Part shown: positions 1 through 11,031 of the stretch, piece after piece
Layout: every line of letters begins with the position of its first letter
Numbering within the stretch: position 1 is the first letter of the stretch
Assembly: GCA_965200315.1 (NCBI GenBank)
Contig: OZ241362.1
Span: 416,001 to 480,000 of the forward strand
Length of the DNA stretch: 64,000 nt
Direction of reading: 5' to 3'
Origin: Candidatus Latescibacterota bacterium
GTDB lineage: Bacteria > Latescibacterota > UBA2968 > UBA8231
Program-made: the position numbers and the translations under genes
The notes under the pieces: model-generated
Seen by the model: only the letters and a program-made list of their open reading frames with translations
What the model was told of the DNA's origin: nothing
Database searches by the model: none

Positions 1-315
1 ATCGGCATCCTAGATGTAAAAAAGATGTTTGGTGCGTGGAGGACTCGGCGGCAGAAGCGGGTGGAGGTAGTGGTTAACCTCGTCGATTGGGACGAAAAAT
101 ACGCCTACGAACGACTTGGCCTTGAAGACAATAAGGTGGTAATTCTCGGTGTCGAGGTGCCTGAGGTCTTCATCCCGCTGTTTCCCGGCAAAAATATCAC
201 GGTACTCGCCGAGACCATAGCGATAAGTTATCTCTTGCGCTTGGACGGTGAGTATGCGGCACGGACATTTAGCGATCGGCTCCAAGAGCGGATTAAGGCG
301 GGCAAAAAACCATGA
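1..315 (+). CDS. hprK: HPr kinase/phosphorylase, C-terminal part (5'-truncated by window edge)
   Basis: Open frame from base 1: IGILDVKKMFG...ERLG...ILGVEVP...IPLFPGKNITVLAE, matching the HprK C-terminal domain. Confidence 0.85.
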   Translation: MGILDVKKMFGAWRTRRQKRVEVVVNLVDWDEKYAYERLGLEDNKVVILGVEVPEVFIPLFPGKNITVLAETIAISYLLRLDGEYAARTFSDRLQERIKAGKKP

Positions 316-1115
316 TGACGCTTGGCGTGGCAGGCCATGATCACGAGATCGTCGCCCATCGGGATGCCTTGCGGGGTTGCCGCGATATCCAGCTTGTACA
401 CGAAGCCGACTGTGCCGCAGTCTTGGAACAAAAAATAGATGGGCTGGTGTTGTTGCACGTGGAAGATAAATCGCATTGGATCGGCGCGGCCCTAGCAGCC
501 GGTCTGCACGTTATGGCGACCCATCCGGTACAGGTGTCGAGCCCTTCCAAGGTGTGTGTGCTGTCCTTGGGGAGGCATACGCACTTTTGCTCGGCTTTAG
601 CCGCTCGACGGGGCGTAGCGCATTATTCACTGGAACTTTCTTTTAATTCGGCTTTATTCGATCCTATTGATCGCGAGACGATCTGCAACCAAGCGGCCTT
701 GGACGTATGCGACCTGTTGCTGAGTACGTGGGGGCCGGTAGATGTGCTGTACAGCAGGATGCGCAACTTCTTTCATCTTGGTCGGATGGAGGACGTGTCG
801 GTCGCGCTGCTGAGGATGCGCAACGGCGTCGAAGGCTCGGTTGCGATCCTAGACTTTCCGGCTGTGGCTCCGACGTTGTGCATCCGCGCATACGCACAAG
901 ACGCAATAATTGATACTTCTTGGCCTTGGGTATGGGAAGCGGGCGATCTGGCGGCGTACTATCGCAATTTTGTCGCCTGCATCCAAGGGCGCGCCCAGCC
1001 ATTGTTGCGTTTAGAGCAGGTGGCCGCAAGCTATCGTCTTTTGGAATGGATGCGCACATCGGCGAGACAAGATGTTATTTTGAACCGCAAGCAAGTAAAA
1101 CAATATGTCTTATAA
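312..1115 (+). CDS. Gfo/Idh/MocA-like oxidoreductase (divergent)
   Basis: Rossmann-like N-terminus, ALAAGLHV, EDVSVALLRMRNG and C-terminal FVACIQG patterns; ATGA overlap with hprK. Confidence 0.55.
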   Translation: MMTLGVAGHDHEIVAHRDALRGCRDIQLVHEADCAAVLEQKIDGLVLLHVEDKSHWIGAALAAGLHVMATHPVQVSSPSKVCVLSLGRHTHFCSALAARRGVAHYSLELSFNSALFDPIDRETICNQAALDVCDLLLSTWGPVDVLYSRMRNFFHLGRMEDVSVALLRMRNGVEGSVAILDFPAVAPTLCIRAYAQDAIIDTSWPWVWEAGDLAAYYRNFVACIQGRAQPLLRLEQVAASYRLLEWMRTSARQDVILNRKQVKQYVL

Positions 1116-1132
1116 AATTTTTTATGTAAATG
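1105..1132 (+). other. dif-like Xer recombination site 1
   Basis: ATGTCTTATAA-AATTTT-TTATGTAAATG, 11-6-11 layout; right arm resembles the XerD arm of B. subtilis dif (TTATGTAAACT). Confidence 0.7.
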
Positions 1133-1136
1133 AAAA

Positions 1137-1661
1137 ATGAAAGAACAATCAACGCAACCCACGTACTTCGCTCTTGCGCTAGCATTCTTCTTATTGGCGA
1201 TCGTGTTGCTGTTCAACATGCTGGGTCCTATGGCCGTGCCGGTTACTAGGGAACAGTTCGATCAGATACAAGAGGCCAATCTCATCGAGTATCTGATCGT
1301 GCAACCCCAAGGATTTACTTGGCAGCTTGCAAGAGCCGTCCGTGTCCAAGGTGCCAACGGCGAGACGGTAGCCAAGCGGATTGAGCTAGCCGAGCCGGAC
1401 CCAACCGTGGCCGAAGATTGGCGACAAAAGGGGGGCGCAGTGCGTCAAGAGCAAGATACCTCGTGGTGGGGAGGTGCGGTCTTCATGGCCTTGTTGCTCG
1501 GCGTGGGGGGATGGCACATCTGGTCCCAAATACGACTGGATATCAAAGGGGGAGGAGGGCCACGCCGCCGCTTGCGCGACTTGGAAGCCGCGCTCAAACA
1601 AGGCAAAATTACCCAAGCCGAATTCCGGCAGCAGGCCGAACGGCTCTGGGCCGAGTTGTGA
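1137..1661 (+). CDS. Membrane protein resembling the FtsH N-terminal region, with a C-terminal SHOCT-like helix
   Basis: Two hydrophobic helices flanking a soluble domain; C-terminal GKITQAEFRQQAERL. Confidence 0.55.
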   Translation: MKEQSTQPTYFALALAFFLLAIVLLFNMLGPMAVPVTREQFDQIQEANLIEYLIVQPQGFTWQLARAVRVQGANGETVAKRIELAEPDPTVAEDWRQKGGAVRQEQDTSWWGGAVFMALLLGVGGWHIWSQIRLDIKGGGGPRRRLRDLEAALKQGKITQAEFRQQAERLWAEL

Positions 1662-1667
1662 GGATAT

Positions 1668-3458
1668 ATGGCGAGTACTATTCGCGTTCTCGACGAAAGT
1701 CTCATTGGAAAAATAGCCGCTGGCGAGGTGGTGGAACGGCCCGCTTCGGTCGTGAAGGAATTGGTCGAAAACTCGATTGATGCGGGGGCCACTAAAATCT
1801 GCGTGGAAATCAGGGCCGGTGGCAAGCAGTCGGTCGTCGTGACCGACGATGGCTCGGGCATGAACAGAGAGGATATCGCGCTGTGTGTATGCCGTCATGC
1901 CACGAGCAAAATGGCTTCAGTGGCCGATCTGTTTCGCATTCAGACGCTGGGGTTTCGCGGCGAAGCCTTAGCCAGCATTGGTGCGGTAGCGCACTTGGCT
2001 ATTGAATCGCGTACAGAGCAAGACGAAACCGGGACGCGCTTGGTTATAGAAGGCGGCATAGAGCGAGAGATGCACAGCATCGGCCGAGCGCGTGGTACGA
2101 CCATTGTGGTAAAGAACCTGTTTTTTAATACGCCAGCGCGGCGCAAGTTCCTCCGCTCGGTCAATGCGGAAGCTCGCCACGTGGCGCAGACCATCATCCA
2201 TCTAGCCGCTGGTTATCCGGCTCTTGGTTTTGAACTAGAGCACCAAGATCGCCAAGTATTGAACTACGCCCCGGCGTCTCGTCGGGAACGGGCGGCCGAG
2301 CTGTTGGGCATCCAGACTGCTCCAGCCGACGAGTTGTTGGATCTCGCCCACGAGGAGGAGGGCCTCAAAATCGAAGGGGTCTTAGCCGGTCCCGAACACT
2401 GCGGCCGGAGCAAGGGCAAGCAGTATCTCATCGTACAAGGACGGCCCATCTCTTCGCGGCTGATGGCTACCGCTGTACAGCGGTGCTTTGAAGGTTTACT
2501 ACCCGAAGGACATCATCCAGTATTCATGCTCTGGATCGATATGGATCCCAAGAAAATCGACGTCAATGTCCATCCGACGAAGCGGGAGATTCGCTTGTCC
2601 AACGAAGGGCAAGTCATCGCGGCTATTGAGAGCAGCGTCCGGCATACCTTGCGCCTGCCCGATGTCCGATCCTTCGTCTATACTGCGGCCCCAAGGCCGG
2701 ACAGCACACCTCGCTTCAGCGAGACCAGCAGTGCTGCGGGCGTCGAGCCGGTTTCGGTGCGCGTGGGCGAATCGGCGGCACCGGTATTGCAAAGATTGCC
2801 TACGCCCGAAGCGCCCGAGTCAGCAGTTCATGCAAACGACCAACTCAATATGGCCCTCGTCGCTCCAGCCTCAGTCAAAGTCGCTGTCGCCGAAGATGCT
2901 GCGATGTGGCAGATCCACAACCAGTACATCCTCGTCGAGGTAGCCGATGGATTGCTCTTTGTCGACCAGCAGGCGGCGCACGAACGCATCAACTACGATC
3001 GGGCCATGGCGCAAGTGGACGGCGCGGCCAGTGAGAGCCAGCAGTTGCTCTTTCCCATACAGCTAGAAATGGGCGCAGAAGATTTCGAGATCTTCAACCA
3101 AGTGCGAGATGATATTACCAAGCTAGGCTTTGTCGCGCGCGATTTTGGTGCGCGGACGGTGTTGGTGGAAGCTGTGCCCGCTGAATTAGATCGCTTTGGT
3201 GAAGGCAATGCTTTTTATCAGCTATTGAACGATGTGCGCGATGGCCAGCATTCGGGCCGCTCTTGGCGCGAAGCACTCGTCTTGGCTTATGCGCGCAAGG
3301 CGAGCATTAAGAAAGGGCAGAAACTGAACGCCGAGGAAATAGCGCACTTGATCAACGAATTGCTAAAGGCCGACTCACCGCACGTAAGCCCAACGGACAA
3401 GCCGATCATGGCGAGGATGAAGTTGAGCGATATGGAGCGTCTATTGCGGAAGTTCTAG
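1668..3458 (+). CDS. mutL: DNA mismatch repair protein MutL
   Basis: KIAAGEVVERPASVVKELVENSIDAGA, TLGFRGEALASI, DVNVHPTK and QQLLFP clamp motif. Confidence 0.97.
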   Translation: MASTIRVLDESLIGKIAAGEVVERPASVVKELVENSIDAGATKICVEIRAGGKQSVVVTDDGSGMNREDIALCVCRHATSKMASVADLFRIQTLGFRGEALASIGAVAHLAIESRTEQDETGTRLVIEGGIEREMHSIGRARGTTIVVKNLFFNTPARRKFLRSVNAEARHVAQTIIHLAAGYPALGFELEHQDRQVLNYAPASRRERAAELLGIQTAPADELLDLAHEEEGLKIEGVLAGPEHCGRSKGKQYLIVQGRPISSRLMATAVQRCFEGLLPEGHHPVFMLWIDMDPKKIDVNVHPTKREIRLSNEGQVIAAIESSVRHTLRLPDVRSFVYTAAPRPDSTPRFSETSSAAGVEPVSVRVGESAAPVLQRLPTPEAPESAVHANDQLNMALVAPASVKVAVAEDAAMWQIHNQYILVEVADGLLFVDQQAAHERINYDRAMAQVDGAASESQQLLFPIQLEMGAEDFEIFNQVRDDITKLGFVARDFGARTVLVEAVPAELDRFGEGNAFYQLLNDVRDGQHSGRSWREALVLAYARKASIKKGQKLNAEEIAHLINELLKADSPHVSPTDKPIMARMKLSDMERLLRKF

Positions 3459-3482
3459 TGTTTGGACACCTGATGATCAGGA

Positions 3483-3514
3483 ATACTAACGATAACAGGC
3501 ATTATCGTTAGTAT
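3483..3514. other. Perfect 13-bp inverted repeat with 6-bp spacer; candidate tyrosine-recombinase core site
   Basis: ATACTAACGATAA-CAGGCA-TTATCGTTAGTAT, 120 bp upstream of the recombinase gene. Confidence 0.75.
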
Positions 3515-3634
3515 AACAAGTGTGCTACACAGCGGGCAAAATGCTGCGATGTTCGCTATATTTTTTCTTAGCCACTGTTAAGAACATCCCGGATATTTAG
3601 TCATCAGACCTTTAGCCCCTGTGAGCATATTCAG

Positions 3635-4609
3635 ATGAGCCGCGCACTCACTCCAGTCGTCCGCCAACTAACGCCAACACCAGCGTTGATGGCGGACGAT
3701 CCTCTGGAACAATTTCTCAGCGGTCAGCTCAGCGAGCGTACGCGACGTGCGTATTACGCCGATCTCCAGCATTTCTTTTTATCCATCGGCCTAGAACTAA
3801 ATGAAGTGTCGCTCGCTGTCTTGCAGTCAATCACCTTTGAGCACGTGGTCGCCTTTAGAAACCAGCTCGCCAGCGAAGGCTACAAGCGCAGCAGCATCAA
3901 CAGAAAGTTGTCCAGCCTGAAGTCGTTGTTCAAGATGTTGGTCGCCTTGGGCCACATTGAGAAGAATCCCGCCGACTCTACGTTGGTGCGCGGCTACAAG
4001 GTTGATGAAACGCTGGCTGGCAAAGCACTTTCCAATCAGGTGCTGAATAAGATTCAGCAAGCCATTGCCGAGGAAAAAGACGATTTGGTTCGTACGCGCG
4101 ATGCGGCCATGTTTCATTTGCTCACATTCGGCGGGCTGCGCCGCTCTGAAGTGGCAGGCGTCGCTTGGGAAGATATATCCTTGGAGGGCGTCTTTTACAT
4201 CCTGCACCTGCCCCAGACTAAATCGGGCGTGGTGCAGGAGATCAAACTGCAAAACATCGTCTTACATCATCTCGAACTGTACAAACAACAACTACAGGTG
4301 GCGGGCTTGCCGGCGACCGGCAAAGTCTTTATCAGCTTGTCGCGCAACCAATCTCGCGGCCGGCCGCTGACCGACCAATCGGTAAATCACATCGTCAAGA
4401 AATACGCCCTGCGCGCAGGCCTCCCCCAAAACGTCACTGCACACATGTTCCGCCACACATGCTGCACCCTAGCGATTGAAGGCGGAGCCAAGCCCCAGCA
4501 GGTGCAAGCCCATTTGCGCCACAAGGATCTAAAGACGACGATGCGCTACTACGAAAACCGCGAGAGGCTGCTCGATAATGCGTCTGATTATATTAGGATT
4601 GGTAGTTGA
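3635..4609 (+). CDS. XerC/XerD-like tyrosine recombinase
   Basis: SAM-like N-domain (SERTRRAYYADL, SSINRKLSSLKSLF); catalytic R (GLRRSE), K (QTKSG), HxxR (HMFRH), H (LRH), Y (TTMRYY). Confidence 0.93.
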   Translation: MSRALTPVVRQLTPTPALMADDPLEQFLSGQLSERTRRAYYADLQHFFLSIGLELNEVSLAVLQSITFEHVVAFRNQLASEGYKRSSINRKLSSLKSLFKMLVALGHIEKNPADSTLVRGYKVDETLAGKALSNQVLNKIQQAIAEEKDDLVRTRDAAMFHLLTFGGLRRSEVAGVAWEDISLEGVFYILHLPQTKSGVVQEIKLQNIVLHHLELYKQQLQVAGLPATGKVFISLSRNQSRGRPLTDQSVNHIVKKYALRAGLPQNVTAHMFRHTCCTLAIEGGAKPQQVQAHLRHKDLKTTMRYYENRERLLDNASDYIRIGS

Positions 4610-4627
4610 GTGTTTTTTGTTGTGTTT

Positions 4628-4655
4628 TATTTACATAAAAAATTTTATAAGACAT
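4628..4655 (-). other. dif-like Xer recombination site 2 (inverted copy of site 1)
   Basis: Minus strand reads ATGTCTTATAA-AATTTT-TTATGTAAATA; 27/28 identical to 1105-1132. Confidence 0.7.
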
Positions 4656-4681
4656 TATATTTTTCAGACTTCACTGAGACC

Positions 4682-7564
4682 TTACACCACGATATTAACA
4701 ATTTTATCCGGCACCCATATAAAGCGCTTTATTGCCGTTTCATCGGCCACGTATTTCTGGATGCTCTCCATATCGAGTACCAAGGACTTGATTGCGTCCT
4801 CGGCGGTGCTGACGGGCACTTTGACTTGTCCGCGCATTTTGCCGTTGACCTGAATGGGGACTACGATCAGGTCCTCAGCGGCCTTGGCTGCATCCCAGTC
4901 AGGCCAACTCTGGCGACTAAGCTCTCCCCTCCCCAAGCCCGCCAGTTCCCAGATCTCCTCGGCAATATGCGGAGCAAAGGGCACCAGCAGGATCAAAAAC
5001 GGCTTAGCAACCGCCTGCGGTACTTCGTCTAAAGACACCAACTGGTTGTTTAACTCGATCAAGGCGGCAATCGCCGTATTAAACCGCAACCCCTCTATGT
5101 CCTCAGCTACCTTTTGGATGGTTTGGTGCAGCTTTCTTTCTAGGTCAGGTCCCAACACCGCGCTCGCCCCTATCTTCACGCGCCGGTCCGAATCGACAAA
5201 GTTGCGCCAAACGCGCTGCAAGAAGCGCTGCATCCCGCGAATGCCTTCCATGCTCCACGGAGCACTCGCTTCGAGTGGCCCCATGTACATTTCGTATAGC
5301 CGCAGGGTATCCACGCCAAATTCCTCGCCAATTTCTTCGGGCGGCAACCCATTTTTGTAGCGCTTGCCCATTTTGCCGAAAGACTGGCGTAGCACCTTCC
5401 CCGTCCCCTTTTCAACAGGCTCCCCATCGCGGAATTCGACCTCGCGGATGTCGATATACACACCGCGCTCGTCCTGAAAGGCATCCGCGGTCATCATGCC
5501 TTGGTTGAACAACTTCTTAAACGGCTCAGGCGTGGATACGTGGCCCAAGTCGTAGAGGGCCTTGTGCCAAAACCGAGCGTAGAGCAAGTGCAATACCGCG
5601 TGTTCAGCACCGCCGATGTAGAGATCAACGGGCATGAAGTAGCTCTCTTTGGCCGGGTCGCAGAAGGCTTCTTCGTTGTGCGGATCGATAAAGCGGAGAT
5701 AATACCAGCAAGAACCGGCCCATTGGGGCATGACGTTGAGTTCGCGCCGGCAGGCCACTCCGTCAATTTCCACTGTCGTCCACTCTGTTCCGGCCCGGTG
5801 CAACGGCGGTGCAACGGGTTGGGTGGGATCGTCAGAGGTTTCCGGTCTGAAATCCTCTAAGTCCGGCAGCGCCACCGGAGGCACCACCGCGACGGAATAT
5901 CCATCGGGGTGCGTGGCCAGTGGAAAGGGCTCGCCCCAATAGCGCTGCCGAGCAAAGGTCCAGTCGCGCAATTTGTAGTTTACCGCGGCTTGGCCACGCC
6001 CTTGGGAGACTAGTACGGCGACGATCTGAGCTTTGGCCGCGCCCGTTGCCAAGCCGTTAATGGCGTATGGATTATCTCCGCCCCGTACTGGAGAATTGAT
6101 CGCAGTTCCCTCCCCGGCATACCACTCCTCGGCCCTTCCCTCCCCTCCAGTAACTACCTTCACAATGTCTACGTTATAGGTGGCGGCAAAGGCGAAATCG
6201 CGCTCGTCGTGGGCCGGCACCGCCATAATGGCACCCGCGCCATAGTCCATGCTGACGTAGTCGGCGACGAAAATGGGAATTTTTTGTCCGTTGACTGGAT
6301 TGCGGGCATAGATGCCGGAGAAAATGCCCGTTTTTTCCTTGGTTTCATCCGCTGTGGAGACGGCAACCTGAGCTACGTATTGGGCTACCGCTTCCCGGAT
6401 GGATTCCCCGCCTCCCTTCCACTGCTCCGGCGTTCCGTCGGGCCAGACGCTGGGCACTAAGTAGGCTTCCCCGGCGGGATCCACCAGCGGATGCTGAGGG
6501 GCAATCGCCATAAAGGTCGCTCCGAAAAGCGTGTCGGGCCGGGTCGTGAACACGGGCAATTGCCCAGCGACCGCGTCGCTTTGCGGGTCAAGGACATCGA
6601 AGCACACTTCAGCTCCTTCGCTGCGGCCGATCCAGTTGCGCTGCATCCGTTTGATAGGCTCTGGCCAATCGAGACGAAAGGGCGCGCCGTTGCGGTCCTC
6701 CAGCTCAAAGTCCAAGTCCTCTAAGAGCCGCTCGGCGTAAGCTGTTATGCGCATCGTCCATTGTCGCAGTGGTTTGCGATACACGGGAAAATCGCCCCGC
6801 TCGCTGCGGCCTTCGCTGTTTACCTCCTCGTTGGCCAATACAGTGCCCAAGCCCGGGCACCAGTTGACGACGGCCTCTTGCTGGTACGCTAGTCGGTAGT
6901 TGTTTAACACAGCTTGCTGCTGGGCCGTGGTTAGTGCAGACCAAGCTGCATCGGTGCTGAGCACTTGGCAATCTGCGGCCGACAGGGCCCTGCCAGCCGC
7001 AAATTGGGCCTCTAAGTCGGCGATGGGCTTGGCTCGTCCCTTTATTTGGCGTCCATTGCCGTCTTCCCAGAGCTCGTCTGCGTCGAAATAGCTGTCGAAT
7101 AGCTGGGCAAAAATCCACTGAGTCCAGCGGTAGTATGACTCCCGCGACGTGACCACTTCGCGGCCCCAATCAAACGAGAGTCCAAGAAACTGCAATTGGC
7201 TGCGCATCGCAGCGATATTCTGCTCTGTTACAGCCGCTGGATGGATGTTGTGTTCGATCGCGTATTGCTCGGCCGGCAATCCGAAACTGTCGAACCCCAT
7301 CGGATGCAGGACGTTAAATCCCTGCATCCTTTTGTAGCGGCTGTAGATGTCGCTGGCGATATACCCTTTGGGATGGCCGATGTGTAGCCCGGCGCCGCTG
7401 GGATAGGGAAACATATCGAGGATGTAGCACTTGGGTTTGCGGTCGTCGAAACCAACCTCCCCCGGCCCCAGCGTTTGATAGGTTTTCTCCTGCTCCCAAT
7501 GGGACCGCCATTTGGTTTCGATGTCTTGGAAATTGTATTGGTCTTTTTTTTGTTTTGTTGACAT
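4682..7564 (-). CDS. leuS: Leucine--tRNA ligase
   Basis: MFPYPSGAGLHIGH, FTTRPDTLFGATF editing domain, YIGGAEHAVLHLLYARF, KMGK variant of KMSKS. Confidence 0.97.
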   Translation of the reverse strand: MSTKQKKDQYNFQDIETKWRSHWEQEKTYQTLGPGEVGFDDRKPKCYILDMFPYPSGAGLHIGHPKGYIASDIYSRYKRMQGFNVLHPMGFDSFGLPAEQYAIEHNIHPAAVTEQNIAAMRSQLQFLGLSFDWGREVVTSRESYYRWTQWIFAQLFDSYFDADELWEDGNGRQIKGRAKPIADLEAQFAAGRALSAADCQVLSTDAAWSALTTAQQQAVLNNYRLAYQQEAVVNWCPGLGTVLANEEVNSEGRSERGDFPVYRKPLRQWTMRITAYAERLLEDLDFELEDRNGAPFRLDWPEPIKRMQRNWIGRSEGAEVCFDVLDPQSDAVAGQLPVFTTRPDTLFGATFMAIAPQHPLVDPAGEAYLVPSVWPDGTPEQWKGGGESIREAVAQYVAQVAVSTADETKEKTGIFSGIYARNPVNGQKIPIFVADYVSMDYGAGAIMAVPAHDERDFAFAATYNVDIVKVVTGGEGRAEEWYAGEGTAINSPVRGGDNPYAINGLATGAAKAQIVAVLVSQGRGQAAVNYKLRDWTFARQRYWGEPFPLATHPDGYSVAVVPPVALPDLEDFRPETSDDPTQPVAPPLHRAGTEWTTVEIDGVACRRELNVMPQWAGSCWYYLRFIDPHNEEAFCDPAKESYFMPVDLYIGGAEHAVLHLLYARFWHKALYDLGHVSTPEPFKKLFNQGMMTADAFQDERGVYIDIREVEFRDGEPVEKGTGKVLRQSFGKMGKRYKNGLPPEEIGEEFGVDTLRLYEMYMGPLEASAPWSMEGIRGMQRFLQRVWRNFVDSDRRVKIGASAVLGPDLERKLHQTIQKVAEDIEGLRFNTAIAALIELNNQLVSLDEVPQAVAKPFLILLVPFAPHIAEEIWELAGLGRGELSRQSWPDWDAAKAAEDLIVVPIQVNGKMRGQVKVPVSTAEDAIKSLVLDMESIQKYVADETAIKRFIWVPDKIVNIVV

Positions 7565-7583
7565 AATTATCCTTATAAGACAC
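7556..7583 (-). other. dif-like site 3 at the asnS/leuS junction
   Basis: Minus strand reads GTGTCTTATAA-GGATAA-TTATGTCAACA; overlaps the leuS ATG and abuts the asnS stop. Confidence 0.55.
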
Positions 7584-8888
7584 TTATGGATAGAGACGCT
7601 GTATCATGCGCGGAAATGGAATGGTCTCGCGCACGTGCTTGACGCCGCACAACCAAGCGACCATCCGCTCGATTCCCATGCCGAAGCCAGCGTGCTCGAC
7701 CGAGCCGTAGCGCCGCAAGTCGAGATACCAGCTAAAGGCTTCTTGGGGCAACTGATGCGCGGCAATTTTGTGCTGCAAGACAGCGAGATCGTCTTCGCGT
7801 TGCCCGCCCCCGATGATTTCCCCGTACCCTTCGGGGGCCAACAGGTCCATACACAGGGCCAAGCGGCGGTCTTGGGCATCTTCTTTCATGTAGAATGCCT
7901 TGACCGCGCTGGGATAGCGGTGGACGAAAACCGGCGACTCGAACTCGGCGGCGAGAATGGTTTCGTCATCCCCGCCCAAATCACTCCCCCAAGCGATGTC
8001 GCTGCCTAGGGCTGTCAGGCACTCGATGGCCTTATCATAGGTCAGGCGCGGAAAGGGCCGCCTGACCTGTTCCAGCTTGGCGGTATCTCGCTCAAGCAGC
8101 TCGAGCTCTGCGCGGCGGCCGTCGAGTACGCGGTCGAGCACGTACAAAACCATGTCCTCGGCCAAGGCCATCGCACCCTCTAAATCGCAATACGCCATCT
8201 CCGGTTCGATCATCCAAAACTCGGTCAGGTGCCGACGGGTCTTGGACTTTTCCGCACGGAACGTCGGGCCAAAACAATAGACCTTGCCCAAAGCCATGGC
8301 GGCCGCTTCCATATAGAGCTGGCCGCTCTGTGTTAAATAAGCCGTGTCATCGAAATACGCAGTCTCAAACAAGGTCGAGGTCCCCTCACAGGCCGCGGGC
8401 GTAAAAATCGGCGCATCCACGAGGACAAAGCCACGCGTTTCCATGAAGTCGCGGCAGGCTTTGCAAATTTCGCTGCGGATCTTGAGAATGGCCCCCGGAC
8501 GAGAAGACCGCAGCCACAAGTGGCGGTGGTCGAGGAGAAAGGACACCCCGTGTTCCTTCGGCGTGATGGGATAAGGCTCGGCCTCCTGCACGACTTTGAG
8601 ATCGCTGACCCCCACCTCATAGCCGATGGGCGAGCGCTCTTCCCGCCGCACTTGGCCGCGGACTACGAGCGAAGATTCTTGCGGCAAGTGATCGCACCGT
8701 TCAAACAGCTCTGATTCGACATCCCCCTTAAAAACAACGCATTGCACCACACCACTGCCGTCGCGCAGTTGCAAAAAATGCAGCTTGCCGCTCGAGCGCT
8801 TGTTGTACAACCAACCGCGCAACACCACTTCTCGGCCCTCATAGCGACCGATGTCAGCCACCTGAATCAACACCATTTGCTTATCCAT
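7584..8888 (-). CDS. asnS: Asparagine--tRNA ligase
   Basis: LRDGSG OB fold, [42 protein letters not shown], motif 3 GFGMGIER. Confidence 0.95.
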
Positions 8889-8902
8889 ATACCGTTATAA
8901 TA

Positions 8903-8940
8903 AGAAAAGACTATCGAGCTAGACTCGATAGCCTTCTCTT
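8903..8940 (-). terminator. Probable intrinsic terminator after pnp
   Basis: Stem CTATCGAG/CTCGATAG followed by a T-rich tail on the minus strand. Confidence 0.6.
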
Positions 8941-8961
8941 CGTCTAGCTCAAGGCCAGCAT

Positions 8962-11031
8962 TTACTTCTTTAACAGAGCCTTGTGGCTGAGCCGCATCTT
9001 GCCGCCGGTATCGATTTCGAGGACCTTGACGGCGATCCTGTCCCCTTGCCCAACGACGTCTTCGACCTTGTCCACGCGCCGATGCGCCAGCTCGGAGATG
9101 TGCAACAGGCCCTCCTTGCCAGGCAGAATCTCGACGAAGGCCCCAAAAGGCATGATCCGTTTGACCACCCCGTCGTACTCTTTACCGACTTCGGCGTCGG
9201 CCGTGATTCCCTCGATCATGCGCCGCGCCTCTTCGGCTGGACCTGCTTCAACCGAGGCAATGGTAATCGTGCCGTCTTCATCGACATTGACCGTGGCACC
9301 GGTCTTTTCGATCTCGCGGATGGTTTTGCCCCCCGGGCCGATGACCGCGCCGATTTTGCTCTGGTCGATCTTGACAAACTCAATGCGCGGTGCCCAGCGC
9401 GAAAGCTCGGGCCGCGCTGGGCTCAGACATTCGTTCATAAGGGCCAATACTTGGTCGCGCCCCTCCTTGGCGCGGTCAAGGGCCTCCTTGAAAATGTGGA
9501 GCTGCAAACCCTGGATCTTGATGTCCATCTGAATCGCGGTAATTCCGTCCTTGGTGCCAGCGACTTTGAGGTCCATGTCGCCGAGAAAATCTTCGGCGTC
9601 GCGGATGTCGGTCAGTAGCTCGTACTCGTCCCCTTCCTTGACCAAGCCCACACCCGTGCCGCACACCGCAGTTTTAACGGGAATACCGGCGTCCATCAAG
9701 GCGAGCGAGCAGCCACACACCGTGGCCATAGAACTGGAGCTGCTCGACTCGGTTATGTCGGACACTAAGCGAATCGTGTAGGGAAAAGATTCAACTGATG
9801 GGATGACCGGCTCTAAGGCGCGCTCGGCCAAATGCCCATGGCCGATGTCCCGCCGTCCCGGCCCGCGCTCAAAGCGCACTTCGCCAACCGAATACGGCGG
9901 GAAATTGTAATCCAAGTAATAGGACTTAAACCGCTTGCCTTGCAGATCGTCGGCCATGCGCTCGTCGAGCTTAGTGCCCAGCGTCGCCACGCAGAGCGCT
10001 TGCGTCTGTCCACGAGTAAACAGCGCCGAGCCGTGCGTCCGCGGCAACACCGTACTCTCGCAGGTAACGTCTCGCACCGCGTCGAGTGCGCGGCCGTCGA
10101 TGCGCCGCTTTTCCTTGAGGATCATGGTGCGCATGTCGGCCTTGAGTAGCGCTTCTAGCTCGGCCAAGATGAGCTTTTCCGAGTCTGGAAAGCGCTCGGC
10201 CAAACCCTCCAAAACGTCGGCATTGATCGCGTCGATGCGCTCTTGTCGCTCTTCTTTGCGCGGACTTCTGTTGGCCTCGGCGATCCGTTCTTGCGCCAGC
10301 TCGACAACGGCGTGGACCAGTTCGGGCTCGGCTTCTGCGACCTCGACGACAATTTTCTCCTTGCCGACTTCAGCAACCAGCCGCTCCTGTAGATCGACCA
10401 GTTCGGCGATGCATTCGTGGCCAAAGGCCAACGCATCCACCAGATCTTGCTCGGCAATCTCGTGGGCACCCCCTTCGACGCTGACGATGGAATCGGCCGT
10501 ACCGCAGACAATGATTTCGAGATCGGACTCATCTAGCTGGGCGGAAGTCGGATTGGCGACAAACTCGCCGTTGATGCGCCCGACTCGCACGGCCCCCATG
10601 GGGCCAGCAAAGGGAATGTCGGAGATACTCAAGGCCGCTGAAGCCCCGATTAAACCCAAGACATCAGCGTCGTTTTCGCCATCGTACGAAAGCACTGAAA
10701 CATAGACTTGGATCTCATAGGGAAACTTCTTGGGAAACATCGGCCGAATGGGGTGATCTATTAACCGGGCACTCAGGGTTTCCTTTTCGGAGGGACGCCC
10801 TTCGCGCTTGAAGATGTTGCCCGGTATCTTGCCGCCAGCGTAGGCCTTTTCCCGGTAATCTACGATCAAGGGCAGAAAGCCCCGATCTTCCGGCTTGTTA
10901 GTCCGGCAGGCTGTTACCAGCACTACGGTCTCTCCGTATTGCATCCACACAGCCCCGTTGGCTTGCTTGGCGATTCTGCCCGCTTCAAGCGACAGACTCC
11001 GCCCGCCTATTTCGCGTTCGAGTTTAGTCAT
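8962..11031 (-). CDS. pnp: Polyribonucleotide nucleotidyltransferase (PNPase)
   Basis: Two RNase PH domains (RLIDHPIRP, HGSALFTRGQTQ, GDMDLKVAGT), KH (IGPGGKTIR) and S1 domains. Confidence 0.97.
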   Translation of the reverse strand: MTKLEREIGGRSLSLEAGRIAKQANGAVWMQYGETVVLVTACRTNKPEDRGFLPLIVDYREKAYAGGKIPGNIFKREGRPSEKETLSARLIDHPIRPMFPKKFPYEIQVYVSVLSYDGENDADVLGLIGASAALSISDIPFAGPMGAVRVGRINGEFVANPTSAQLDESDLEIIVCGTADSIVSVEGGAHEIAEQDLVDALAFGHECIAELVDLQERLVAEVGKEKIVVEVAEAEPELVHAVVELAQERIAEANRSPRKEERQERIDAINADVLEGLAERFPDSEKLILAELEALLKADMRTMILKEKRRIDGRALDAVRDVTCESTVLPRTHGSALFTRGQTQALCVATLGTKLDERMADDLQGKRFKSYYLDYNFPPYSVGEVRFERGPGRRDIGHGHLAERALEPVIPSVESFPYTIRLVSDITESSSSSSMATVCGCSLALMDAGIPVKTAVCGTGVGLVKEGDEYELLTDIRDAEDFLGDMDLKVAGTKDGITAIQMDIKIQGLQLHIFKEALDRAKEGRDQVLALMNECLSPARPELSRWAPRIEFVKIDQSKIGAVIGPGGKTIREIEKTGATVNVDEDGTITIASVEAGPAEEARRMIEGITADAEVGKEYDGVVKRIMPFGAFVEILPGKEGLLHISELAHRRVDKVEDVVGQGDRIAVKVLEIDTGGKMRLSHKALLKK

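Follow-up and report, generated by a model that had tools for sequence, protein, structure and literature searches.

A Xer-like recombinase and its linked 13-6-13 site form a conserved module at the replication terminus in one family of Candidatus Latescibacterota

Introduction

Why should a chromosome that encodes recombinases of the XerC/XerD type also hold, at its replication terminus, a further Xer-like recombinase with an inverted-repeat site of its own? Known chromosome dimer resolution depends either on XerC and XerD acting together, or on one recombinase that replaces them (XerS, XerH, XerL, or XerA). The question is raised by a locus in the genome of a Candidatus Latescibacterota bacterium, for which a sequence-only reading of the window (the whole 64,000-nucleotide stretch of DNA that was analysed) had proposed a lone recombinase with a perfectly symmetric site. 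It could, according to that reading, be a single-Xer resolution system or carry an autoregulatory operator.

A literature search for Xer or dif in Latescibacteria found no paper. If true, a conserved extra recombinase with its own site among terminal XerCD sites would be a new arrangement, and one may ask why two such systems should exist side by side. The pair is compact and easily tested, with an enzyme of 324 aa and a 32-bp site of which there are natural spacer variants. It also allows uncultured phage-like elements and phase-variable surface genes to be assigned to their hosts, in a candidate phylum without genetics.

Results and Discussion

The recombinase and its neighbourhood

The 324-aa open reading frame next to the palindrome (Table 1) belongs to the tyrosine recombinase superfamily, as judged by the gathering cut-off of PF00589 and the R-K-H-R-H/W-Y set. 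It scores 97.1 bits against a cut-off of 27.1 for Phage_integrase (PF00589) and 42.7 bits against 22.3 for the SAM-like N-domain. Residues R169, K196, H270, R273, H296, and Y305 align with the catalytic positions of E. coli XerD (PDB code: 1a0p), and all six are invariant in 22 relatives; the enzyme is thus intact, as the sequence-only reading had held. E. coli XerD is also its best sequence match among solved structures (E 3.5e-17). An AlphaFold2 model built from 22 sequences has a mean pLDDT of 75.6, with the invariant C-terminus below 50. Foldseek comparison of the model with the PDB returned lambda Int, XerD, Tn1549 Int, XerA, Cre, and XerH at about 1e-8 to 1e-10, and on these model-based scores no one tyrosine recombinase appears to be set apart as the closest fold. 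A protein atlas search returned generic tyrosine recombinases only.

The recombinase falls well below the cut-offs of the models for XerC (TIGR02224, 128.8 bits against 335.15), XerD (TIGR02225, 118.3 against 329.6), XerS (NF003462, 81.3 against 267), and archaeal XerA (NF040815, 109.4 against 220). A maximum-likelihood tree was built from 31 recombinases of the family genomes, without reference XerS, XerH, XerL, and XerA; in it the protein and its orthologues form a clade of their own (support 99/97), apart from both the XerC-like clade (100/99) and the XerD clade (96/94). Of the phylogeny that had been suggested as a check on the earlier reading, the part with XerC-like and XerD proteins thus sets it apart from both as a third recombinase.

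The surroundings are housekeeping genes, as had been described: mutL lies upstream, and leuS, asnS, and pnp lie downstream on the other strand. Upstream of mutL, family-wide, there is an open frame of 174 aa (orf174, window 1137-1661; 24-41% identity), whose only family match is a sub-threshold one to GvpG.

Table 1. Positions of the features of the locus in the window, and of the related sites at two replaced loci.
Feature	Position	Strand	Basis or remark
XerCD-type asymmetric dif-like site, left bracket, A+T-only spacer AATTTT	1105..1132	+	conserved in relatives
mutL, upstream neighbour, inside the bracketed segment in the genus	1668..3458	+	synteny
13-6-13 core recombination site 'pal' (putative)	3483..3514	.	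perfect inverted repeat
Promoter-like block ending TATATTT(T/G), inferred to serve the recombinase gene	3535..3564	+	genus alignment and distant loci
Xer-like tyrosine recombinase P0001, 324 aa, family-specific third recombinase	3635..4609	+	Pfam, alignment, tree
XerCD-type dif-like site, inverted copy of 1105-1132 (1 mismatch, same spacer)	4628..4655	-	between the stops of the recombinase gene and leuS
leuS, convergent downstream neighbour	4682..7564	-	synteny
Third XerCD-type dif-like site, spacer GGATAA, between leuS and asnS	7556..7583	-	several genus loci
Quasi-palindrome of the cassette in G134	L116 ~2546-2577		upstream of distant recombinase
Quasi-palindrome of the cassette in G172	L117 ~1565-1598		upstream of distant recombinase

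The palindrome in its own genome

The palindrome reads ATACTAACGATAA-CAGGCA-TTATCGTTAGTAT (32 bp), with fully complementary arms at 3483-3495 and 3502-3514 and the spacer at 3496-3501. It begins 24 nt past the mutL stop and ends 120 nt short of the recombinase ATG, so that its sequence, its coordinates, and its 120-bp spacing are all verified. A perfect palindrome per se is not statistically special in this genome. Perfect arms of at least 13 nt with loops of 0-10 nt give 90 register-hits at a few dozen places in the 5.36 Mb, most of them G+C-rich hairpins, and the observed count of the arm word (up to 2 mismatches) was reached in 6 of 100 shuffles. The sequence of the palindrome itself has a single occurrence, even with a degenerate pattern and 2 mismatches. 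Its significance lies in its conservation together with the recombinase gene.

Its place just past mutL could suggest a transcription terminator of that gene, an RNA hairpin, or a chance palindrome, since it can form a stem of 13 bp and the surrounding 121-nt region has a z of -3.7. However, there is no T-run, no terminator was called at the palindrome, and an Rfam search gave no match. Most orthologous sites have uncompensated arm mismatches, and the site is kept where mutL is not upstream (L015/L047, L060). RNA-library contigs bridging 1731-4953 and 1205-4454 run through the site, which is weak evidence, with DNA carry-over possible. Such an origin is therefore considered highly improbable.

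Conservation of the site and gene as a pair

With a presence threshold of E up to 1e-60, the orthologue was found in 60 of 168 Candidatus Latescibacterota genomes, in one copy each. All sixty belong to one GTDB family (59 of 75 genomes, plus the genome of the window), and none of the 92 genomes from the 13 other families of the phylum has it. A protein search gave 363 relatives; the 120 matches listed are 60-91% identical, and the C-terminal 50 residues are nearly invariant. Loci from MAGs encode orthologues 89-95% identical to the recombinase. Across the family the order orf174, mutL, site, recombinase gene, and leuS on the opposite strand is kept. Relative to the genome of the window and in the same loci, identity is 61-68% for the recombinase, 62-66% for leuS, and 39-44% for mutL. 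The recombinase is therefore under as much constraint as an aminoacyl-tRNA synthetase.

The site is conserved along with the gene. Sixty loci from public collections were compared, of which 54 match the site with up to 8 mismatches and one variant (L093) was added from the alignment; two loci whose upstream sequence is missing (L079, L090) were left out. Thus 55 of 58 assessable loci, all from one GTDB family and with protein identities of 58-95%, have the site upstream of the orthologue, and in all 23 loci of the genus it is at the matching place. Neither mismatch search nor alignment found it upstream of the orthologue in L062, L070, and L078. The sequence-only reading had named a lack of the palindrome at orthologous loci as its own refutation; with the site present at 55 of 58, it is not refuted on this ground.

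Whole genomes gave the same result. Searched for with at most 1 mismatch, the pattern ACYANNGATAANNNNNNTTATCNNTRGT matched 49 of the 60 recombinase-positive genomes and none of the 16 recombinase-negative genomes of the family, and the reversed pattern used as a control matched 0 of 76 family genomes. Exactly one site is present in 42 of the 49 matched genomes; the additional copies, in 7 genomes, carry other spacers. Linkage of the gene to an inverted-arm site with a short spacer, and one such site per chromosome, as in the genome of the window, are two features expected of single-recombinase Xer/dif systems.

An 'empty' mutL-dif-leuS locus was sought in five drafts that lack the orthologue, and the mutL C-terminus was matched in only one of them (G140), where it abuts a convergent and unannotated open frame of 340 aa. 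Some of the absences in drafts may therefore be assembly gaps or rearrangements.

Polarity and orientation of the site

The typical site of the genus is ATACTAACGATAA CAGGCA TTATCAATAGTAT, and most orthologous sites have 1-3 arm mismatches. The conserved parts are GATAA-N6-TTATC and the outer ACTA/TAGT, and some sites of the genus are changed on both arms and remain perfectly symmetric (ACC/GGT, CCC/GGG). When 51 distinct sites were oriented by the spacer alone (consensus C-A/G-G-G-C/T-A), the TTATC of the right arm proved invariant, with C in 51 of 51, and the mirror position of the left arm was G in 32, T in 15, and C in 4; TAGAA variants were all in the left arm. The site therefore has an intrinsic polarity, one arm being invariant and the other variable. 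The perfect symmetry that had been claimed thus holds for the genome of the window and does not hold as the conserved state; across the family, comparison of the sites indicates a quasi-symmetric and polar element. Template switching at quasi-palindromes is a possible source of both the perfect arms and the flipped sites.

The second alternative of the sequence-only reading, a palindrome that is mainly an autoregulatory operator bound by the recombinase or by another dimeric regulator, can be weighed on this anatomy. The palindrome is upstream of the gene, a conserved promoter-like block (Table 1), which presumably resembles the Bacteroidetes-type -7 motif TAnnTTTG, follows it, and symmetric arms would suit a dimer. 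On the other hand, the site may be anywhere from about -60 to -870 from the gene, or at -2498 as in L071, with insertions between; in about 25 of 56 loci its orientation is opposite to that of the gene; the spacer of 6 bp is conserved, and is coupled to the asymmetry of the arms; and the same type of site occurs far from any recombinase gene. An operator is thus a poor fit and is regarded as improbable. The anatomy of the site is typical of tyrosine-recombinase core sites, and an operator or a transcript hairpin fits it poorly. Very probably, the palindrome is the cognate core site of the adjacent recombinase.

Position at the replication terminus

The module sits at the replication terminus. 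The window covers 416,001-480,000 of one 5.36-Mb contig. The cumulative GC skew of this genome peaks at about 410-420 kb, with its maximum ending at 420,000 (2-kb resolution), close to the site at 419,483; dnaA, at 2.96 Mb, is roughly opposite, some 47% of the circle away from the site. Genes converge on the module, with 91 long open frames on the plus and 43 on the minus strand in the left 300 kb, and 48 and 74, respectively, in the right 300 kb. When 20 kb on each side of the recombinase gene were compared in 10 other genomes, the skew flipped from plus to minus across the gene in nine, with values of +0.04 to +0.10 to the left of the gene and -0.03 to -0.11 to its right. These include G041, G042, G043, and G045, at 63-66% protein identity. 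In one genome, G044/G169 (68-70% G+C), the flip is absent at the locus over the same 20 kb per side. A left-minus-right difference of at least 0.08 is found at 3.45% of random positions in the genome of the window. The terminus position of the site, in this genome and in nine of the ten others, is another feature shared with single-recombinase Xer/dif systems. Overall, the site and gene are a conserved, terminus-located, single-recombinase module of the Xer kind.

The XerCD-type machinery

The module is not the only Xer system of its genome. The sequence-only reading had suggested a search for xerC, xerD, and ftsK elsewhere, and all have counterparts: XerD (345.5 bits against a cut-off of 329.6, TIGR02225), a XerC-like protein (316.5 bits against 335, TIGR02224), and FtsK with a gamma domain. 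XerD and the XerC-like protein match E. coli XerD at 1e-55 to 1e-60. A fourth, distant recombinase is also encoded, with no palindrome nearby. At the XerD locus (L002:1495-2742, minus strand), the longest open frame has about 125 residues before the match to the XerD model, and an open frame of 426-428 aa over XerD is common to many genomes of the genus.

The asymmetric dif-like sites that had been noticed nearby are three 28-bp sites of the form TGTCTTATAA-N6-TTATGTAAAT, all inside 6.5 kb at the terminus (Table 1). Elsewhere in the genome there are weak matches only, 4.5 kb further left and, with 4-5 mismatches, at 1.57 and 2.07 Mb. We take the right arm of these sites to resemble the XerD arm of canonical dif. 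With XerD, the XerC-like protein, and the three sites found, the proposal that the module works alongside a XerCD-type system holds as far as co-presence is concerned. At least one XerC/D-type match is present in 74 of 76 family genomes. An ancestral XerCD dif was also sought in other families, where matches were no commoner than in the control, apart from one 20-mer common to G029 and G082. In the relatives, the XerCD-type sites keep their arms and the A+T-only spacers vary between genomes, often being identical within one genome (L036, L042, L050).

In G134, G135, G169, and G172, each of which has a terminus recombinase module, the sole XerC/D-type gene (E up to 1e-60) belongs to the XerD clade. 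These genomes may therefore lack XerC, and since they form one clade, a possible loss of XerC would be at most one evolutionary event. A reading of the sole Xer of some genera as XerC-like was rejected on the tree, which places it in the XerD clade.

Bracketing and replacement of the locus

Between the inverted sites at 1105 and 4628 lie orf174, mutL, the palindrome, and the recombinase gene. With up to 4 mismatches, a minus-strand XerCD-type site just past the recombinase stop was found in 32 of 60 related loci, a plus-strand site upstream in 24, and both in 20. In L060, L064, L072, and L073 the brackets enclose the palindrome and the gene only, and the module of L060 is turned round with respect to its two flanks.

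Two genomes without the orthologue hold something else at the locus. At the mutL/leuS locus, G134 and G172 encode distant tyrosine recombinases of 309 and 319 aa (45 and 36 bits with the XerD model), which have a quasi-palindromic site of about 13-6-13 of their own upstream and XerCD-type sites alongside. In the tree they group, on long branches, with the fourth recombinase of the genome of the window. Cassette replacement has therefore occurred at this locus. The cassette in L117 appears to be flanked by two XerCD-type sites in direct orientation.

These observations favour another reading of the module, as a 'dif module' captured or domesticated between inverted XerCD sites. Its terminus position would be a by-product, dimers would be resolved by XerCD, and the recombinase would serve other reactions, such as multimer resolution or integration of mobile elements, promoter inversion, or its own maintenance. 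The bracketing in 20 of 60 loci, tight around site and gene in four, the inverted module of L060, and the different cassettes of G134 and G172 all point this way, as do the confinement of the orthologue to one family and the further sites in mobile-element contexts and in an inverton-like pair (see below). The terminus position could indeed have been inherited from the flanking XerCD sites and not selected for the module. However, the module is single-copy and syntenic, and diverges like leuS, which is the behaviour of a vertically inherited housekeeping gene; a cassette of recombinase and site only has no evident selfish means of persistence; the genome of the window has no second site to serve as a substrate; and inversion joints are absent from the contigs. 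The capture of such a module is thus possible, although doubtful.

As to the joints, the DNA contigs from two runs show a single, collinear arrangement across window 1-9000. The sole joint reported (window 6655/7115) lies inside leuS, comes from one RNA-library contig, and is unrelated to the XerCD-type sites. There is therefore no sign of inversion between 1105 and 4628, which decides nothing, since contigs drop rare forms.

Site mimics in other contexts

Further copies of the site, with the same arms and other spacers, have no recombinase gene beside them, and they lie in a phage-like element, in islands rich in insertion sequences and restriction-modification genes, and in inverted pairs. 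In G151, five further copies are on the small contigs C9, C12, and C6. On C9 the site recurs about every 10.4 kb, in a roughly twofold repeat with 99% self-identity (L143, 1-10417), and C12 and C6 are related variants of this unit (94-97% over most shared segments). The 10.4-kb unit (64% G+C) encodes a portal, prohead protease, capsid, HNH, large terminase, and endolysin, as well as an 854-aa protein without an assigned function, and no integrase is recognisable in it. Its site mimic is at about 8839-8866 of L143, with the spacer ATCCTA. The islands, which contain two copies in G128, encode transposases of the IS481, IS110, and Mutator types, together with a group II intron reverse transcriptase and a type ISP restriction enzyme.

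In G148, each of two loci has an inverted pair of sites, 158 bp from start to start (L146 5159-5344; L147 5039-5224), with matching spacers TAAAAG/CTTTTA, enclosing a sigma-70-like TTGACA-17-TAAGTT motif. The pair is upstream of a 943-aa leucine-rich-repeat protein with a weak secretion-tail match, and it could be an invertible promoter; L146 and L147 have the same internal orientation. Two same-orientation mimics in G150 (C1:3848691 and 4093145; spacers CTAGAG and CCAGAG) are 244 kb apart and might bound a large integrated element. Mimics of this kind without a recombinase are the pattern expected of a dependable host recombinase that is exploited by mobile elements.

Exact matches to the degenerate site pattern were also seen in 36 viral contigs (L149-L184), most with 27-38% G+C, and many of these sites read TATTACTAACGATAA-N6-TTATCGTTAGTAATA. 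In the six contigs checked (L149, L159, L173, L178, L179, and L184) the site is about 250-350 nt upstream of an open frame of 422-492 aa; two of these frames resemble large terminases, and a portal gene comes after four of them. Within 6 kb of the viral-contig sites no recombinase homologue was found, except a 29% match in L170.

Proposed role

The reading that we favour, and to which we give an even chance, is that the module is a single-copy, host-encoded terminus system of one recombinase and its linked site that resolves chromosome dimers alongside XerCD. Two recombinase protomers would bind the two 13-bp arms, and two sites, one per sister chromosome, would synapse into a homotetramer. 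Y305 would then cleave where the 6-bp spacer meets the arms, and strand exchange would turn the chromosome dimer into monomers, perhaps under FtsK control and in parallel to XerD (with or without XerC) acting on the bracketing XerCD-type sites. On present knowledge no second dimer-resolution system is required, because XerD, the XerC-like protein, FtsK-gamma, and XerCD-type sites at the terminus are all present. A broader scheme would be a composite terminus, in which the third, polar-site recombinase, nested between inverted XerCD dif sites, is a hub that resolves dimers, perhaps partners or replaces XerC in G134, G135, G169, and G172, and is borrowed in trans via mimics by integrase-less phage-like elements and promoter invertons. 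This scheme is considered unlikely.

Comparison with known systems

Among single-recombinase systems, XerS/difSL is described as a single module, in which one recombinase and its site are linked genetically (PMC5357621). Like the present module, XerS/difSL of streptococci and lactococci has a linked recombinase, imperfect inverted arms in difSL, and an association with the terminus. However, XerS replaces XerCD, whereas the present genome keeps XerD and a XerC-like protein, and difSL is a 31-bp site with an 11-bp centre, in contrast to the 13-6-13 arrangement here.

XerH/difH of Helicobacter and Campylobacter is likewise described as a single recombinase acting on a near-palindromic site. The two arms of difH differ functionally. 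Unlike the recombinase in this study, XerH is the only chromosomal Xer of its genomes; XerH chains are absent from the solved-structure sequence matches of the recombinase at E up to 1e-5, and XerH has rank 30 among its fold matches.

XerL/dif is reported as a lineage-restricted single recombinase of the Legionellales, revealed through a mobile element with a site mimic, in genomes described as having no XerCD homologues, and its activity and phenotype were demonstrated (PMC9765430). The 10.4-kb phage-like element here carries a site mimic in the same manner; the likeness is one of description, the present system being known from its sequence.

XerC and XerD are the nearest sequence relatives of the recombinase, and the core ATAA-N6-TTAT is common to both types of site. 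Replicons that have only a XerCD site, such as cer, are described as using the host recombinases in trans (PMC5357621). The dif site has distinct XerC and XerD arms, whereas the present site has two near-identical arms. XerC/D-like sites around plasmid modules of Acinetobacter are reportedly oppositely oriented. Modules bordered by such sites are described as carrying resistance genes in Acinetobacter plasmids (PMC5790767, PMC11705084). As in the present case, a short gene module lies between XerCD-type sites; those modules, however, are plasmid-borne and encode no recombinase, whereas the present module is chromosomal, sits at the terminus, and has a recombinase and a site of its own.
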